Positions 49,203 to 55,229 of a DNA stretch of 64,000 bases are shown here, piece by piece; position 1 is the first letter of the stretch; each line of letters opens with the position of its first letter. The notes below the pieces were generated by a model that saw nothing but the letters and a program-made list of their open reading frames with translations, searched no databases and was not told the DNA's origin. The stretch lies in NCBI GenBank assembly GCA_965248535.1, contig CBDFJR010000002.1, forward strand, positions 2,016,001 through 2,080,000, in the 5' to 3' direction. This stretch comes from Phormidesmis sp. Lineage in GTDB: Bacteria; Cyanobacteriota; Cyanobacteriia; Leptolyngbyales; Leptolyngbyaceae. The position numbers and the translations under genes are program-made.

Positions 49203-49403
49203 GGCTTTTCCCAAAACGCTTTGATGACTTTCTCAACGTCTCAGATTTAGAACCCCTTGAAATCTATCGGATGAGTGAAATGAAGGATTACTCAATGAGC
49301 CGAAGGCTTGGCGATCGGGCAAGATTGTCTAGGTGAAGAAAGATTAAATGATGTCGGTGATTATGGCTGCAATAACAAGTTGGGCAATGAGATAGCTGTA
49401 CCT

Positions 49404-49454
49404 TTACTCCTCTGTTGAGCAGCAAATAGAACCCGGTAGATTCAGTTGTCCCAT
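49404..49454 (-). pseudogene. Truncated PIN-toxin 5' remnant (MGQLNLPGSICCSTEE*)
   Basis: Same MGQL start and same overlap with the antitoxin's ..SWD(N/S)* end as the intact toxin at 50242. Confidence 0.6.
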
Positions 49455-49672
49455 GAGGATCTCTCTTCCTGCAAGTATTGATCGACTTCTTCTGGGGTGT
49501 GGAAGAGTTGTTGTCCGGGCGCTTCGTTGAGAAGGTCGATGATCGACTGTTTGGGTTGTGGGGTTGTTGAAAGAAGGCGCGATCGCACGAGGTTTTGCTC
49601 TGCGGGTGAGAGTGCATGAATTGCCTGAATGAGCGACTCAACAAGCTGAAAGTTAATGGTTGTACTGTTCAT
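49442..49672 (-). CDS. Orphan antitoxin-like protein
   Basis: 76 aa ending EEVDQYLQEERSSWDN, matching the end of 50230-50469; same leader and RBS region. Confidence 0.7.
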   Translation of the reverse strand: MNSTTINFQLVESLIQAIHALSPAEQNLVRSRLLSTTPQPKQSIIDLLNEAPGQQLFHTPEEVDQYLQEERSSWDN

Positions 49673-49791
49673 AGATTTTTTCCTTGATACATTTTTAGTT
49701 TTTAATGCTCGATCGCCCCTAGTGCTTTCAGCGTTGCTTTTTCTGCTTCAGTCAAGCCTTTGACTCCCGTGATGTTCATGCCTTCATAAGG
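49670..49791. repeat. 122-bp direct repeat copy 1: orphan NACHT-WD40 3' tail plus leader plus ATG
   Basis: Manual alignment to 50467-50588 shows 6 mismatches; encodes PYEGMNITGVKGLTEAEKATLKALGAIEH*; abuts HIP1 GCGATCGC at 49792-49799. Confidence 0.95.
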
Positions 49792-49801
49792 GCGATCGCG
49801 T

Positions 49802-50242
49802 TTATGCATTCAAAACATCCTTAAGCACCACTACAGACAACCCTGGAACCGTTCGCAAGCCACCATCGTTAGTCAAGAAAAGGGTACAACCTAGACTGAG
49901 TACAGTGGCAGCATGGATGGCATCAGGTGTTTTTAGATGAGTGATCGCACGCAGATTGGCAGCAGATCTGAGAATATCTTGGCTAATTGCAACGAGATGG
50001 ATATCGTCTCTGAACAGATCTTCATAGATTTCAATCAGTGATGTATTGCTGTTTTTGAGTGGAGAGACGAGGGTTTCTAGCAAAAGCAGTTCACTACTAA
50101 CGATGTTAACTTCGTTGGCTTGGGATTTAGCCCACAGGGGCTGAAGCAGTGTCCAGTAGTCTAGATTAATCTCGACACTGTAAATAACGGGTGCAGTATC
50201 GACATAAACAGTTGCATCTGGAGGAATGGTTAGCTGTCCCAT
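49802..50242 (-). CDS. vapC: PIN-domain (VapC-like) toxin
   Basis: VYVDTAPVIY, LLETL, TPDAIHAAT and FLTND acidic PIN motifs. Confidence 0.92.
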   Translation of the reverse strand: MGQLTIPPDATVYVDTAPVIYSVEINLDYWTLLQPLWAKSQANEVNIVSSELLLLETLVSPLKNSNTSLIEIYEDLFRDDIHLVAISQDILRSAANLRAITHLKTPDAIHAATVLSLGCTLFLTNDGGLRTVPGLSVVVLKDVLNA

Positions 50243-50469
50243 GAATCTCGCTCCATTTGCAGATTGCGATCGATTTCTTCAACGCTTCGGAAAGGACCTA
50301 GTTTGTGAGCAGCGTCCAAAATTTCTAAGGCTCTGCGTTTTGAAGCCGTTGGCTTCTCTGGCAACATCACGATGACTTCGATGTCTTCACCGATTTCCCC
50401 TTCAGGGATTTCAATTTCAATTTTATTACCTGGAAGAATTTTAGTTATCACACGTAAAGCAGCTTGCAT
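50230..50469 (-). CDS. Putative antitoxin (VapB-like)
   Basis: 79 aa with a beta-rich N-terminus; overlaps the PIN gene start. Confidence 0.75.
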   Translation of the reverse strand: MQAALRVITKILPGNKIEIEIPEGEIGEDIEVIVMLPEKPTASKRRALEILDAAHKLGPFRSVEEIDRNLQMERDSWDS

Positions 50470-50588
50470 AGATTTTCTCCTTGATACATTTTTAGTTTTT
50501 AATGCTCGATCGCTCCTAGCGCTTTCAGCGTAGCTTTTTCTGCTTCAGTTAAGCCTTTGACTCCCGTGATGTTCATGCCTTCATAGGG
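50467..50588. repeat. 122-bp direct repeat copy 2: native NACHT-WD40 3' end plus leader plus ATG
   Basis: Matches 49670-49791. Confidence 0.95.
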
Positions 50589-53500
50589 TTTGTTACTCAG
50601 CGTTTTCAAACACTCACCTGATTCAATATCCCAAAATTTAATTGTTTCATCATAGCCACCACTCACCAGTGTTCTATTATCTGGAACAAAAGTCACTGAG
50701 CGTACTCGATTGGTATGACCATTAAAAGTTTTAAGGCATTCCCCAGTGTAAGCATCCCAGAGCTTTACTGTGTGATCAAGACTACCAGTAGCTAAGAATT
50801 TACTATCACAACTAAAGGATACTGAATCTATTTCACTGGTGTGTCCTTGCAAAGTTTTGAGATATTTTCCCGTACGGAGATTCCATGTTTTGACTGTTTG
50901 GTCTCGACTACCACTAGCTAAAAACTCTCCATTGGGTGCAATAGCGACAGAGCGAATACGATCAGTATGTCCTGTTAAAACTTCACGACATTCTCCTAAG
51001 TTTACGTCCCATAACTTTACTGTTTTGTCAGTGCTGACACTAGCAATAGTTGCACCATCCGGGCTAATGGCAACTGAATTGATCCAGCCATCATGCTGTC
51101 CTTGAAGAGTTTTCAAACATTCACCACTAAGAACATCCCATAACTTTATAGTGCCGTCATCATTACAACTCACCAGAGTCGCACCGTCAGGACTGAATAC
51201 AACTCCTGCCATGTGACTATTGTGCCCATGTAGGGTTTTAAGGCAGTCTCCAGTGTGGATGTCCCAAAGTTTGACTGTATCATCACCACTGCCACTAGCA
51301 AGAGTTTTACCATCAAGACTAATCGCAACTGAACTTATCCACTTGTGATGTCCCTCTAAGGTTCTAAAACAATCTCCAGTGGATGTATTCCATAGCTTGA
51401 CTGTCTTATCATTACTGCCAACAGCAAGAAATCTTCCATCGGGACTAACGACAACTGTATCGATCCAACGACTATTGCCTTGGAATGTCCTCAAACAATT
51501 GCCAGTCTGCGTATTCCAGAGCTTCACTGTCTGATCATCACTGATGCTAACAAAGATTGTGTTGTCTGAATTAAAAGCAATTTTCCTGACTCTAGCGGAA
51601 TGCCCTTCTATAGTTTTGATACATTCGCCAGTACTAATATCCCAAAACTTTATCGTTTGATCTCTACTACCACTTGCAAGAGTTTTATTGTCTTGACTGA
51701 AGGCAATTGATCGTACGCTACGAGTATGACCTTCTAAAATCTTAATGCACTCATGGGTAAAAGGATTCCAGAGCTTTACTGTGTTATCTGAACTACCGCT
51801 TGCAAGAATCTTGCCATCATAACTGAATACTAATGAGAGAACGGACTTAGTTTGTCCTTCTAAGGTTTTCAAACATTGTTCTGAATCTATATCCCAGAAC
51901 TTGATCGTTTTGTCAAAACTACCACTTGCTAAGGTTTTCTCATCAGGAGAGACTGCGATTGCCCATATTATATCTGTATGCCCTTGAAAAGTCTTCAAAC
52001 AGCCTCCCGTCTGAACATCCCAGAGTTTTATGGTTTTATCATCACTGCTACTGGCAAGAATTGTACCGTCTGAATTAAAAGCTATTGATCTCACTGCACC
52101 AGCATGACCCGCCATAACTCTTAGGCATTTCCCGGTATCACTATTCCATAGTTTTACTATTCCTTCATGCCCACCACTAGCAAGAATCAAGCCGTCAGGA
52201 GTAAATGCCACTGAGCTAATCCAATCGCTGTGTCCTCTGAACTTCAGAATTTGCTCACCATTGTCAACTTGCCAAAAGCGAAGTTCACCATCTGCTCCAC
52301 CCGTTACAAATAACTGAGCTTTAGGGCTGAATGCAACGGATAAAAGAAGACCAAAAGCTTCGAGAAAAATAGAATTGGTTAAGTCTGCTTCCGAAAAGTT
52401 AACGTGTCGTAAGCTAGCATTTGTGAAATTAGCACCTTGAAGAATGCTATGGCTAAGATCTCTACCCTCAAGAGCAGTTTTATCCATCGCAACTATCAAT
52501 GTTGCTGTATTGCCTCCGACATAATCTACTTCTACCTTAGTTTTCCCTCGTACTGTATCCAAAATATTTTGGAGGGAAGAATAGTGCGCTACTGAAACAT
52601 GCAACATTGGCAAAATCAGATCTAGTACTGCTTTCGGTAATGATATTTGCCCAAAGCCCGATCGCAACACTTCCAAACTCTCATTCACAAACTCTTTCAA
52701 GGGTGCAATCTGTTTTTCGCGGTGACCAAAATACTCTGACCACTGATAGTCACGCGGTCTCAGGGTGGTATCGACGCAGGGTTGCATCTGTGCTAACTCC
52801 AAAAAATCAGGCGCTAAGGCACCTAATTCAGCGGCAAATTTGTAGGCGACAAAGAACTCTAAGAGCGATCGATGCGCTGGCATATAATCCCCATCAGCAT
52901 TGCGGATCAACATCGTCTGACCCATCATGTCGTAGTGCCAGTGATCCAAGTCTTTCTCTTCCTGAACCACTGAACCAAACAAGCGACGGATACGATCAGG
53001 AAACTCACGATAGTTGAGACTCATGCGATCCGTAGACAACATTTCCCACGACAACTCACACAAGAAATAGAGCTTTTCTGCCAGGGAGGTAAACGTGCGT
53101 TCTGCCTTGATGTCTCGCTCCATTTTGCGTCGTACTGCGTAGAGATAAACACGCGACATATCTACAGGTTTACCCGCTTCAATATCCGGTAGCGCCTCCA
53201 AAATCAATTCTGTCATCACCGGACGACGCGCCAAATCAAGCAATTGTGCGTTGTTCATCACCTGTTGCACCACCTCTGAAGATGCCTGCAACGCCAAGAC
53301 TTGCCGAATTTGCTCATCGTCAAACTTCTCCAGTTCCAGCACCTCAAACTGAGGCGTATCTTCGTTCAGGTTGATGGTTGAGGCTTTAAGTTCCGCATTC
53401 AGTAGCGCCCGTCCTTCTTTGACTTCTGGGAAATGCTCCGTCCGACAGGTCAAAATCACCTTTGCCCCTGGCACGACGATTTTTGCCAATTCCCAAAAGT

Positions 53501-54935
53501 TATTGATCATCTCCTGGCGATCGACCCGCGCTGCCATCTCGTCAAAGCCATCAAAAATCAGCAGCAGCTTGCCCATGCGGTTGAGTTGCTCAAACGCTGA
53601 ATAACCGGGAATTGGAATCTCGTGTTTGCGGAAGAAGAACTCGGAAAACAACGACTCCACGCTCACTGCTTTAGCATAATCGCGCAAGGGAATGACCAGC
53701 GGCAGACGCGGACGATCGACTCCCCGCTTTTGGGCATCCCGATAGCGTTGCAAGGCAACCCAGGCATAGTGCAGCGCAAACCAGGTTTTCCCAGTGCCAA
53801 ACTCACCCAAGACAGAAATATGCTCCTTCGCCGGATCGTCCAGCCATTGGTCAATGTAGCCATCGATCCAGCCATCACGATCGTCGTAACGACTCACCGC
53901 AATGCGCTGCTGTGTCACCGGGTCTAATTCTTCTTTGGTGCAAGCCAGCGGCACGTACTTCTGCTCAATCTGCCGCTGTTGAATTTCTGCCTCTAGCCAA
54001 CTCAGGTATCCACTAAAGTCAGCATCTTGATCCAGCAATTCATCAAAGGTGTAGCAGCCCAAATGAGCGTTTTCGGGTTTCTCAACTTCAGTACGCGCCG
54101 CTCGACTAATCCGTCGGGTCGTGACCAGCCAACCTTCATCGGTGCGCTGCTGTTCCACCGATTGACGCAGCATTCCCACATCGCCAATCTCAGCCGCGCC
54201 TTCCATGCCCCGCACCAGAATGCGATCGTACCGTCCCCGCCGCACCGGAATATTAATCACCCACTCAAAATAATCGTTTTGCCAAATTTCATGGGTCTCA
54301 AAGCGATAGCCCAAGGTTTCAAACCAACCTTTCATCTGTTGCGCCAGCGCAAAGGCTCTACACTGCCGATCCTGAGATTCAGCCGATGGTAAAGCTAAAC
54401 TTTGGGCGGCGAGCCGAGCCATCTCCGTTCGCATTCCCTCTAACGTCGGCAACCGAGTCAATCGTTCTTGAACCGTGCCGATTTGCTGATGGAGCGACTC
54501 TAATTTTTGATTCGTCAACACTTCAGCCGGAGTGCGAGTGCGTTTAGCAACTTCAATAAAAATGGCGGCAAACTGATAAAACTCTCGTCTGGCATCAATG
54601 CCTAGCTCCTGAATTTGTTCGCCTAGGGCATGGCTTGACAGAAACTTCTCGCCTTCTTGCAGCAACAGCGCCGAGTTGTTGCGATCGAGTGCCTTACGAA
54701 AGATCGCTTGGATTGCCAACTGCCGGAAAATCTCCAGCACAGGCTTTGGCTTACCGATGCCATACTCAACCAGGGTGTACTGGTAAACGGCTGTGAAATC
54801 CGCTGGGGGATGATCGGGATCGAGGTTCAGTTGCTTTAACAGCTTAATCACAAGCTCATTGCGCTGAAGCTTGTTTTGCACAACGGGACTCGCAAACCCG
54901 ACAATGATATCGATTAGCTTAACCAACTCAATCAC
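50499..54935 (-). CDS. NACHT NTPase with N-terminal helical and Mrr/REase-like domains, pentapeptide repeats and 14 WD40 repeats
   Basis: Walker A GEFGTGKT, Walker B LLIFDGFDE, ILTCR sensor; pentapeptide tract DLSHSILQGANFTNASLRHVNFSEADL; 14 GH...W(D/N)-type repeats counted by eye. Confidence 0.92.
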   Translation of the reverse strand: MIELVKLIDIIVGFASPVVQNKLQRNELVIKLLKQLNLDPDHPPADFTAVYQYTLVEYGIGKPKPVLEIFRQLAIQAIFRKALDRNNSALLLQEGEKFLSSHALGEQIQELGIDARREFYQFAAIFIEVAKRTRTPAEVLTNQKLESLHQQIGTVQERLTRLPTLEGMRTEMARLAAQSLALPSAESQDRQCRAFALAQQMKGWFETLGYRFETHEIWQNDYFEWVINIPVRRGRYDRILVRGMEGAAEIGDVGMLRQSVEQQRTDEGWLVTTRRISRAARTEVEKPENAHLGCYTFDELLDQDADFSGYLSWLEAEIQQRQIEQKYVPLACTKEELDPVTQQRIAVSRYDDRDGWIDGYIDQWLDDPAKEHISVLGEFGTGKTWFALHYAWVALQRYRDAQKRGVDRPRLPLVIPLRDYAKAVSVESLFSEFFFRKHEIPIPGYSAFEQLNRMGKLLLIFDGFDEMAARVDRQEMINNFWELAKIVVPGAKVILTCRTEHFPEVKEGRALLNAELKASTINLNEDTPQFEVLELEKFDDEQIRQVLALQASSEVVQQVMNNAQLLDLARRPVMTELILEALPDIEAGKPVDMSRVYLYAVRRKMERDIKAERTFTSLAEKLYFLCELSWEMLSTDRMSLNYREFPDRIRRLFGSVVQEEKDLDHWHYDMMGQTMLIRNADGDYMPAHRSLLEFFVAYKFAAELGALAPDFLELAQMQPCVDTTLRPRDYQWSEYFGHREKQIAPLKEFVNESLEVLRSGFGQISLPKAVLDLILPMLHVSVAHYSSLQNILDTVRGKTKVEVDYVGGNTATLIVAMDKTALEGRDLSHSILQGANFTNASLRHVNFSEADLTNSIFLEAFGLLLSVAFSPKAQLFVTGGADGELRFWQVDNGEQILKFRGHSDWISSVAFTPDGLILASGGHEGIVKLWNSDTGKCLRVMAGHAGAVRSIAFNSDGTILASSSDDKTIKLWDVQTGGCLKTFQGHTDIIWAIAVSPDEKTLASGSFDKTIKFWDIDSEQCLKTLEGQTKSVLSLVFSYDGKILASGSSDNTVKLWNPFTHECIKILEGHTRSVRSIAFSQDNKTLASGSRDQTIKFWDISTGECIKTIEGHSARVRKIAFNSDNTIFVSISDDQTVKLWNTQTGNCLRTFQGNSRWIDTVVVSPDGRFLAVGSNDKTVKLWNTSTGDCFRTLEGHHKWISSVAISLDGKTLASGSGDDTVKLWDIHTGDCLKTLHGHNSHMAGVVFSPDGATLVSCNDDGTIKLWDVLSGECLKTLQGQHDGWINSVAISPDGATIASVSTDKTVKLWDVNLGECREVLTGHTDRIRSVAIAPNGEFLASGSRDQTVKTWNLRTGKYLKTLQGHTSEIDSVSFSCDSKFLATGSLDHTVKLWDAYTGECLKTFNGHTNRVRSVTFVPDNRTLVSGGYDETIKFWDIESGECLKTLSNKPYEGMNITGVKGLTEAEKATLKALGAIEH

Positions 54936-55110
54936 AGGGTTTCTCCGCAGGACGATCAGGACTCAATCGTTATTATCCAAACTCCATCGGTTAAATGGGC
55001 AAACCAGCAGATTTTTCTCATCTAAGCCTTGCTCTATGGTTATGAATTCTCTCCTGCCGAGTCAATCACATCTACAAATTGGACTTTGGCTGAATCCAAA
55101 ACCACAACAA

Positions 55111-55133
55111 AGGGACTGACGCTGCCAGTCCCT
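55111..55133 (-). terminator. Hairpin downstream of tRNA-Leu
   Basis: AGGGACTG-7nt-CAGTCCCT followed by TTGTTG on the minus strand. Confidence 0.6.
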
Positions 55134-55147
55134 CAAGGGTAAATATA

Positions 55148-55229
55148 TGCGGATGAAAGGACTTGAACCTTCACTTCTTGCGAAACCAGAACCTAAATCT
55201 GGCGCGTCTACCAATTCCGCCACATCCGC
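55148..55229 (-). tRNA. trnL: tRNA-Leu(UAG)
   Basis: GCGGATG acceptor stem, TGGCGGAATTGGTAGACGC D-arm, CCAGA-TTTAGGT-TCTGG anticodon arm, long variable arm, GGTTCAAGTCC T-arm; CCA not encoded. Confidence 0.97.

Follow-up and report, generated by a model that had tools for sequence, protein, structure and literature searches.

The window, a stretch of 64,000 nucleotides from a Phormidesmis sp. genome (G000), contains an NLR-like receptor gene followed on the same strand by a predicted toxin-antitoxin (TA) pair and by a second predicted antitoxin gene (Table 1). The receptor has Pfam matches to NNH5 (PF22736), NA-iREase1 (PF22722) and, fourteen times, WD40 (PF00400). Its core is labelled NACHT from a Walker-A-like GEFGTGKT motif and the call made in an initial annotation, none of the 25 Pfam matches listed being to NACHT. 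This content (NNH5, an inactive REase, NACHT and a repeat sensor) is that of bNACHT proteins of the NNH5/NA-iREase1 type. PADLOC matched no full-length defence system at the locus. The GC content is 0.51 in the conserved core and 0.415 in the exchangeable module of linker and WD40 repeats.

Table 1. Features of the receptor locus, in window coordinates.
Feature	Position	Strand	Remark
tRNA-Leu	55148..55229	-	~5.85-kb block (about 49282-55140) at tRNA 3' end
NLR-like gene, 1478 aa: NNH5, NA-iREase1, NACHT-type core, pentapeptide linker, 14 WD40, conserved C-terminal tail	50499..54935	-	
Left swap point (approximate), core / linker and WD40	52760..52810	-	Around residue 710-725, identity to G369 drops from ~100% to ~45%
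Exchangeable WD40 double-propeller sensor region	50598..52340	-	
Tail copy 1: coding NLR end, leader and AT1 ATG	50467..50588	-	
Cassette unit AT1-PIN-HIP1-tail-leader, 797 bp	49670..50466	-	
AT1, 79 aa, predicted antitoxin	50230..50469	-	Predicted from gene order
PIN-domain (VapC-like) predicted toxin, 146 aa	49802..50242	-	PF01850, E 4e-10
HIP1 octamer, joint of PIN gene end and orphan tail	49792..49799	.	
Tail copy 2: orphan spacer, leader and AT2 ATG	49670..49791	-	
AT2, 76 aa, predicted antitoxin	49442..49672	-	
9-codon remnant of AT2's PIN partner, island end	49428..49454	-	

The AT1 reading frame overlaps the start of the PIN gene by 13 bp, a VapBC-like layout of a PIN gene with a small gene upstream, and AT1 is 51-52% identical to genes that precede PIN genes in G000b, G379 and G023. 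Complete PIN genes follow AT2 homologues in G146 and G376. Neither AT1 nor AT2 has a Pfam family at E ≤ 0.001 (the best for AT1 is DUF5335, E 0.083), so the label antitoxin rests on gene order. The PIN toxin has no sequence match in the PDB. We considered whether the block at the tRNA-Leu 3' end is a tRNA-targeted integrative island and rejected this. The block is absent in the congeners G001, G005, G006 and G007, where the region upstream of htpX lies within ~100 bp of the tRNA, but it has no integrase of its own, and no duplicated tRNA 3' end or att repeat was seen at its far end. A paralogous locus, L001, does carry an integrase.

The end of the receptor gene occurs twice, as a direct repeat of 122 bp (29 sense codons, the stop, a 29-bp leader and an ATG) whose copies are offset by 797 bp and differ at six positions. 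One mismatch lies in the leader (50477/49680). The five coding ones are all synonymous third-position changes (Pro, Leu, Ala, Ala and Gly), an outcome with a probability of 0.0008 for random substitutions, or 0.002 if these are weighted for transitions. The second copy, an orphan tail, begins at the HIP1 octamer GCGATCGC, 2 bp past the PIN stop, and reads RDR-PYEGM where the intact receptor gene reads SNK-PYEGM. This genome has roughly one HIP1 per 1000 bp, and an octamer starts within ~2 bp of the stop in 0.5% of 3125 long ORFs. These particulars bear out the initial annotation, which had described the repeat, its synonymous changes and the HIP1 site. It had also placed a different antitoxin gene behind each copy; the genes do differ, and the word antitoxin comes, as above, from gene order. 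A decaying local duplication, which it had disfavoured, can be ruled out because the coding changes are synonymous only, a different gene follows each copy and the architecture is recurrent. An assembly artefact, which it had named as a ground for refutation, is also rejected, since a 749-bp contig (49759-50507) bridges the repeat junction in runs X1 (one difference) and X2 (none), which come from the same study and may be the assembly's own source.

The repeat is not a scar of one isolated event but the spacer of a cassette array, and the window holds the smallest case of an architecture that recurs in several other cyanobacteria. Extra local tail copies were found at 10 of 49 loci of the NNH5-iREase-NACHT-pentapeptide-WD40 family (one to six per locus, 22 in total) and were absent from the other 39; the 49 loci are a non-random sample, with arrays concentrated in few genera. 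Where at least 1.2 kb of downstream sequence is present, arrays occur at 10 of 46 family loci, whereas none of 25 other WD40 genes that bear the tail has a further copy within 1.2 kb (Fisher p 0.011, with related loci not independent of each other). The class-wide junction search gives too low a number of tails, since it scored two candidates per genome and no more. Exact-pattern scans, which were too narrow, gave no hits in viral contigs, three in genome contigs and one in metagenome contigs, all four at loci already in the set. G173, in which the end of the contig truncates AT2, escaped the AT2 protein search. There AT2 starts directly behind the NLR tail, and at six diagnostic sites this tail is orphan-like at three 5' positions and NLR-copy-like at two 3' positions, states that are common in the family and therefore weak markers. 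The pattern is the opposite of that of a mid-tail single crossover.

Nearly all tail copies stand between TA-like pairs, each cassette having a tail copy and its own leader in front, and the cargo comprises PIN, PemK, HNH, XisH/XisI, DUF433/DUF5615, DUF2283 and TumE. Six cassettes are stacked in G146, and further arrays lie in G417 (four tails) and G340. Stacked orphan tails and differing cargo behind the tail had both been predicted. Related cassettes recur at different places in different arrays. One of an 84-aa gene with HNH leads the array of G348 and takes fifth place in that of G146 (88/85% identical), and G023 has a duplicated cassette with copies 97-99% identical. The NLR tail of the same locus is the best of the 49 for 10 of 16 orphans and ranks second to fourth for the others. 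Our searches of the open-licence literature found no account of tail-spaced TA arrays.

The joints of these arrays favour CGATCG, as predicted. Of 21 spacers, 9 have this motif no more than 13 bp from the stop before them, to which G417 adds three of three, against a genome-wide background of 185 in 3125 ORFs (5.9%); the other 12 spacers have no CGATCG inside that distance. A joint of PIN end, HIP1 and tail equivalent to that in the window is present in G023, whereas the joint in G348 uses the second, internal CGATCG of the tail. A native CGATCG at the D-R position is found in only 3 of 49 family NLR tails. Some tail-less homologues also have CGATCG just past the stop; in G232b, for instance, it lies 1 bp beyond DUF5615. 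HIP1 has been tied to both site-specific and illegitimate recombination (PMC4390886), and it improved integration (10.1101/2024.09.10.611283).

Sensor and cargo assort independently on either side of the tail. Between G000 and G369 the receptor is 91% identical in the N-terminus, 98% in NACHT, 46% in the linker, 47% in WD40 and 90% in the tail. The comparison of NACHT and WD40 phylogenies that the initial annotation had called for gave incongruent trees. The core tree joins G000 with G369 (99/99) and rejects G369 with G003 (p-AU 0.00017); the WD40 tree joins G369 with G003 (97/96) and rejects G000 with G369 (p-AU 0.0015), so that the sensor half has been exchanged between alleles. WD40 swapping is real, but it is uncoupled from cassette gain.

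This bears on the route proposed initially, in which one linear piece of donor DNA would bring in a new WD40 region together with its tail and TA pair, recombining through homology in the NACHT core and, at the other end, through HIP1. The old tail and AT2 would stay in place downstream, and repeated rounds would build stacks. The swaps that it needs do occur. A contig of X4, with a different WD40 end (CGATCGC at the D-R codons) joined to an orphan-type tail, has the form of the required recipient, the AT2-linked tail of G173 is orphan-like at its three 5' sites, and WD40 remnants ahead of orphan tails point to displaced gene ends (96 aa in G003, and seemingly ~45-60 bp of the last repeat, by eye, in G414a and G208b). 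However, the metagenome relative X3 has the G000-type WD40 allele joined to tail and AT2 with no cassette (record 18 joins 49702 to 50488, and the contig departs from the window sequence at 49427), a difference that may record either gain or loss of the cassette. G020 and G269 have WD40 regions only 29% identical, yet they share their first cassette and have no orphan ahead of it. An in-frame TAG and a derived start are common to seven orphans (five in G146, one in G023 and one in G417) that follow different genes, which as they stand cannot be displaced NLR ends, and the route would require a sensor swap for every cassette, six of them in G146. We therefore consider it unlikely overall, though possible for the window's locus taken alone. 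The sensor exchange, the stacked tails, the CGATCG joints and the lack of an integrase at the locus were correctly anticipated, whereas a single event importing WD40 and TA pair together is unsupported as the origin of the orphan.

The same remnants in G003, G414a and G208b could also mean that whole WD40-tail-TA modules were stacked in tandem, in the manner of orphan Rhs/CdiA modules, and the WD40 part later deleted between the post-stop CGATCG and the tail, with the TA pair kept by addiction, in which case the tail would be a residue and not a hinge. Orphans do decay, many having frameshifts, stops or small insertions, and HIP1-promoted excision has been reported (PMC4390886). Given that none of the 49 loci was seen to have a full-length WD40 module in tandem behind it, and that deletion alone leaves unexplained both the single derived orphan start behind five G146 genes and the cassette duplication in G023, we regard this history as improbable.

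Since the cassettes are TA pairs and the spacers begin right after stop codons, the spacers might be atypical attC-like sites served in trans by integron integrases encoded elsewhere. An IntI above the TIGR02249 cut-off was found in four of five tested genomes (two in G000) and in none of 14 controls. The attC boxes have the consensus RYYYAAC (R'') and GTTRRRY (R'). Both boxes were found in none of 21 spacers (R'' alone in one), with a pattern-plus-fold filter that itself recovered only one candidate attC beside two intI genes. The mean folding z of orphans is -0.14 (n=16) compared with -0.31 for coding tails (n=19); the orphan in the window reaches about -2, and its terminal inverted repeat is not conserved. 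With no paired boxes, no folding excess and no Rfam match in three loci, an attC or hairpin element is ruled out. The IntI genes of G000 lie >900 kb off with their own attC-like sites beside them, G414 has an array and no IntI above the cut-off, and no tyrosine recombinase (PF00589/TIGR02249) was matched beside the arrays of G000, G146, G023, G020 and G414. Service in trans is thus very improbable.

Selection might instead have kept the orphan tail as a translated mini-ORF or as a promoter element serving the TA pair behind it. This would explain the synonymous-only changes and make recombination incidental. Several orphans start at an internal ATG that overlaps the previous stop (G023, G020), and the leaders have, by eye, TAAAAT/TATAAT-like boxes and AGGAG. 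But a consensus promoter scan of the repeat gave nothing above chance, a stand-alone pair of an AT2-like gene and PIN has no tail, and many orphans are frameshifted, stopped or interrupted after the internal ATG, so that a conserved mini-peptide is unsupported. There is very little room for such an explanation.

We suspect, with a probability of roughly 60%, that the 122-bp repeat is the spacer of a predicted TA cassette array in which the tail serves as a homologous-recombination hinge, with joints likely formed at CGATCG past the toxin stop. Cassettes would be stacked with ~100-base tail copies because the tail doubles as this hinge, no dedicated integrase being involved. Few parts of the NLR are as conserved as the tail, which is confidently structured. 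Folding of the C-terminal 700 aa with an alignment gave a pLDDT of 94, compared with a poor single-sequence fold (57), and the tail's 5-residue bridge spacing equals that of the pentapeptide linker. Since the alignment-based fold yields no contact list, we infer that the tail may pack on the pentapeptide coil.

In this hinge scenario, a tail-leader-TA unit would first come from a related locus, DNA past a stop having been joined to a tail start through short homology at CGATCG/GATCGC. It could enter as an excised circle, through one crossover in the tail, or as a linear fragment with its homology anchor upstream. Once two tails are present, RecA-type recombination between them may excise, duplicate and reorder cassettes and keep tails locally alike, while small ATGAA-to-ATGAA deletions would give the shorter spacers. 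Crossovers in the tail would leave the receptor protein intact, which would explain the synonymous-only differences, and old cassettes may be retained by addiction. Sensor swapping would be a separate process, in which a double crossover, with one exchange at the NACHT end and the other in the tail, replaces WD40 and leaves no orphan. The locus would most likely have a role in defence or addiction, as a variable site.

A bolder and more tentative reading, which we hold possible rather than probable, is an integrase-free, integron-like platform. In it the coding end of the NLR would be an active attachment site for HIP1-directed capture and shuffling of TA and other defence genes, and the same hinge would swap whole WD40 sensors, allowing combinatorial reassortment of the sensor with the toxins downstream.

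Several known systems are comparable in part. Orphan CT-immunity modules of Rhs/CdiA also have a conserved coding anchor, an exchanged variable part and downstream orphan toxin pairs with no integrase (PMC10539506), and they too carry a scaffold fragment for homologous exchange, here 22 tail copies at 10 loci. Unlike in them, the anchor in the NLR follows the variable region and consists of the final 30 codons; type II TA-like pairs are carried as genes of their own with no in-frame toxin tip, the NLR ending in its conserved tail; the scaffold is intracellular and NLR-like, with no secretion signal noted; and the joints favour CGATCG. Integrons and CALINs share small, tandem, TA-rich cassettes, a repeat just past the stop and an order that varies between genomes, but here there are no attC boxes or hairpin and no adjacent IntI, every cassette comes with a separate leader, and the repeat represents part of a protein-coding gene. 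Fungal NWD genes (het-D/het-E) likewise encode NACHT-WD40 receptors with a diversified sensor. They diversify by shuffling near-identical repeats, whereas here the whole linker and double propeller are exchanged and TA cassettes lie downstream. The bNACHT proteins of Kibby et al. (NNH5/NA-iREase1) are alike in domain content and common in cyanobacteria; the main text of that paper does not contain 'toxin-antitoxin', 'WD40' or 'recombin' (10.1101/2022.07.19.500537). In HIP1 recombination and SDR5 insertion the joints also fall at GCGATCGC/CGATCG, and small insertions in the tail's inner CGATCG resemble SDR5 placement (PMC4390886). The earlier HIP1 evidence comes from plasmids, cloned DNA and laboratory transformation, while the arrays are a single class of locus built by numerous natural joints.

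From the perspective of genome evolution, these arrays are a cassette architecture built from a piece of a coding gene, which integron finders would miss, and they nominate uncharacterised small gene pairs as TA or defence candidates. They document that sensors are exchanged as a whole within a family of bacterial NLRs, and the natural allele pairs, with 97-99% identity in NACHT and 29-47% in WD40, form a panel on which phage triggers could readily be mapped. The function of HIP1 in cyanobacteria has been a question for 30 years, for which the arrays offer numerous junctions of natural origin and a locus that is simple to assay. If the integrase-free platform is true, HIP1 would have a natural genomic job.

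On the minus strand the locus reads tRNA-Leu, the NLR gene, its tail (the conserved last ~30 codons), a leader, a first predicted antitoxin (AT1), a PIN gene, a HIP1 octamer, a second tail and leader, a second predicted antitoxin (AT2), a 9-codon PIN remnant and htpX; the antitoxins are labelled from gene order. As the initial annotation described, the tail repeat has the coordinates and length tabulated here and six mismatches, five of them at synonymous third positions (chance of 5/5 synonymous, 0.0008-0.002), and HIP1 lies 2 bases beyond the PIN stop. An octamer so near a stop is found for 0.5% of 3125 long ORFs in this genome (G000), where HIP1 density is ~1 site per kb, a richness that marks it as cyanobacterial. 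The repeat junction is spanned by contigs from two public runs, both of one study.

In four congeners tRNA-Leu is joined to the htpX upstream region within ~100 bp, and thus the intervening 5.85-kb block is an insert; integrase genes were looked for inside it and none was found. In G002 (locus L035) another insert, ~1.9 kb long and carrying an ORF of 357 aa, occupies this site, which is therefore a hotspot. GC content drops from 0.51 in the NLR core to 0.415 in the linker and WD40 region. The NLR stretch carries no HIP1 octamer, against ~4-5 expected from the genome average, which fits a foreign origin.

Coordinates of the features discussed (positions without a prefix refer to the window; L, locus; C, contig)
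Feature	Location	Strand	Description
NLR gene	50499-54935	minus	1478 aa; NNH5-iREase-NACHT-pentapeptide-WD40
Direct repeat	49670-49791; 50467-50588		122 bp
HIP1 beyond PIN stop	49792-49799
HIP1-free NLR stretch	50500-54935		4.4 kb
CGATCG at H-R-S codons	52860-52872
Paralogous NLR	L001:6364-13492		one in-frame TGA
AIPR gene meeting tail	L152:830-2800 (G418); L150:150-790 (G132)
Tail-internal insertions	L076:8830-8870; L076:9755-9795		~25-30 bp
Integron integrases of G000, outside the window	C2:161466-162431; C2:1131578-1132543		above TIGR02249 cut-off

Tail-spaced arrays of predicted toxin-antitoxin cassettes are a real and recurrent architecture. The NLR family is present in 54 of 401 sampled genomes of the class and 27 of 90 of the family. 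Among 49 tail-bearing loci, drawn from 40 regions of a class-wide, non-random sample plus further regions, ten have extra local tail copies (1-6 each, 22 in total), which we call orphans. In G146 six cassettes are stacked (one with PemK, three with PIN, one with HNH and one XisH/XisI pair), and G023 has five orphans and one duplicated cassette whose copies are 97-99% identical. Beyond the 49 loci, G417 has four tails within a 3.4-kb contig and G340 has one orphan, while six more NLR ends have a single tail each. A later tail within 1.2 kb follows 10/46 members of the NLR family and 0/25 other tail-bearing WD40 genes (Fisher p 0.011, with kin not independent); in the wider control a second tail occurs in 2/30, each in another long gene >3 kb away.

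Related cassettes occupy differing positions. An 84-aa+HNH cassette leads in G348 and comes fifth in G146, and a DUF433/DUF5615 cassette leads in G122 and is internal in G417. Cargo is common to several families, unlike the orphans, which resemble the NLR tail of their own locus: for 10/16 that tail is the best match of 49, and for the others it ranks 2-4. A lone PemK-tail unit with the derived orphan start described below lies on a separate contig of G146 (C99, L141). Broken NLR genes are still followed by tail-spaced cargo in G021 (L043; XisI) and G318 (L077; DUF2283-like and 82-aa genes). In G421 (L153), G232b (L107) and G208a (L100), the toxin-antitoxin clusters behind the NLR show hardly any recognisable tails, or none, between pairs; clusters thus occur spacer-free as well, or lose their spacers. 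A paralogous NLR in L001 has the tail-leader-antitoxin-PIN layout with no orphan; its neighbours are a tyrosine integrase, a cysteine-desulfurase-like gene and an FtsK-domain gene of 1658 aa.

The sensor is exchanged as well. NACHT and WD40 identities are 98% and 47% for G000/G369, 99% and 34% for G020/G348, 98% and 29% for G020/G269, 97% and 30% for G404/G411, and 96% and 43% for G018/G010, with tails 87-97% identical across the five pairs and the switch near residue 715. In trees of 20 full-length proteins out of 38, omitting the most distant, and with groups for the AU test picked after inspection of quick trees, the core unites G000 and G369 (99/99) and rejects G369+G003 (p-AU 0.00017), whereas the WD40 region unites G369 and G003 (97/96) and rejects G000+G369 (p-AU 0.0015). 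In G327, G358 and G240 (L112, L118, L122), WD40 GC far exceeds core GC (0.61 vs 0.49, 0.50 vs 0.34, 0.55 vs 0.36), a pattern opposite to that of the window and consistent with long-range sensor transfer. A CGATCG at H-R-S codons, ~25 codons ahead of the swap point and present in 18/38 family members, may be merely codon-driven.

Sensor exchange is uncoupled from cargo, the two assorting independently across the tail. G020 and G269 have their first cassette in common (84/93%) and unrelated sensors, and G173 combines a G003-type sensor with the tail-leader-AT2 start of the window. A contig from X3, a metagenome run with relatives, links 49702 directly to 50488 and so has no cassette; this and other X3 contigs match the window WD40 region at ~94-97%. 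The initial annotation had proposed one event replacing sensor and cargo together, leaving the old tail behind at a HIP1 joint. Its predictions of variable sensors and cargo, stacked orphans and HIP1 junctions were largely borne out, yet a single coupled event is not the interpretation that fits best and seems doubtful. In run X4 a different WD40 end with a native CGATCGC runs into an orphan-type tail, which keeps that route alive for the window locus.

In 9/21 spacers, and additionally in 3/3 of those in G417, a CGATCG is found no more than 13 bp from the preceding stop, compared with 5.9% across the genome. A binomial test gave p = 8e-7 (9/20, leaving out a spacer with no cargo gene before it), which is overstated, the joints being inherited. 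No fewer than six different gene ends, seven counting AIPR, meet a tail at CGATCG, and in G348 the joint lies at a further CGATCG within the tail itself. CGATCG after the stop is already present in some tail-less homologues and absent in most. An AIPR gene meets the tail exactly at CGATCG in G418 and G132; in G418 a NACHT-end fragment of 40 codons, itself beginning at CGATCG, stands in front of the gene, as if the sensor slot had been taken by a different defence gene. Insertions in the tail's inner CGATCG-like site (L076, also L031, L108, L113, L116 and L077) resemble in placement the HIP1-targeting SDR5 repeat described in PMC4390886.

Several observations speak against a purely CGATCG account: 12/21 spacers have no CGATCG nearby, a native CGATCG occurs in only 3/49 family NLR tails, and three orphans keep WD40 remnants. 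One PIN/tail joint of G417 holds ATGAA three times; deletion between two such copies would yield the joint seen in G020, and ATGA-overlap spacers may therefore be secondary. Tandem modules later compacted by deletion would be another explanation of the arrays, which we regard as quite unlikely. Orphans of G146 (n=5), G023 (n=1) and G417 (n=1) have in common a derived start carrying a TAG in frame, and thus orphan-type tails were propagated or converted as such.

In a predicted fold of the C-terminal 700 residues (38-sequence alignment, pLDDT 94), the tail is placed confidently, with a 5-residue bridge spacing as in the pentapeptide linker, and 3/11 invariant NLR columns fall in it. On this model the tail may cap the pentapeptide coil, which would account for its conservation. 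A tail serving as mini-ORF or promoter is very improbable.

Tail-spaced arrays work like integron arrays, but the attC box pair occurs in 0/21 tail spacers, the spacers have no conserved hairpin, and no integrase adjoins the arrays in the five genomes examined; IntI genes lie elsewhere in 4/5 of these genomes, and their action in trans is very improbable. Both G000 integrases have small-gene arrays and attC-like sites nearby, with an upstream segment common to both, and IntI was found also in G146, G023 and G020. Nearest in mechanism are orphan Rhs/CdiA modules (PMC10539506); here, in contrast, the anchor sits at the C-terminus and no cargo is fused to it. The NLR family is already catalogued in Pfam and in the Kibby preprint (10.1101/2022.07.19.500537), which expects sensors in common among related NACHT modules, the opposite of the unlike sensors found here. 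HIP1-linked recombination is known from lab systems, according to PMC4390886 and 10.1101/2024.09.10.611283. No account of tail-spaced arrays was found in the open literature, including the accessible text of PMC13581612 and PMC7159879 (subscription journals lay mostly outside the scope), and the architecture is apparently undescribed so far.

We suspect, with a probability of about 0.6 for the scheme as a whole, that CGATCG joining, tail recombination and retention by addiction act together. A tail-leader-cassette unit would be joined to a tail start via short homology at CGATCG and would enter by homologous recombination anchored within the tail or upstream of it. Tail-to-tail events could then excise, duplicate or reorder cassettes. 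The receptor would stay intact because crossovers fall in the tail, and old cassettes may be retained through addiction.
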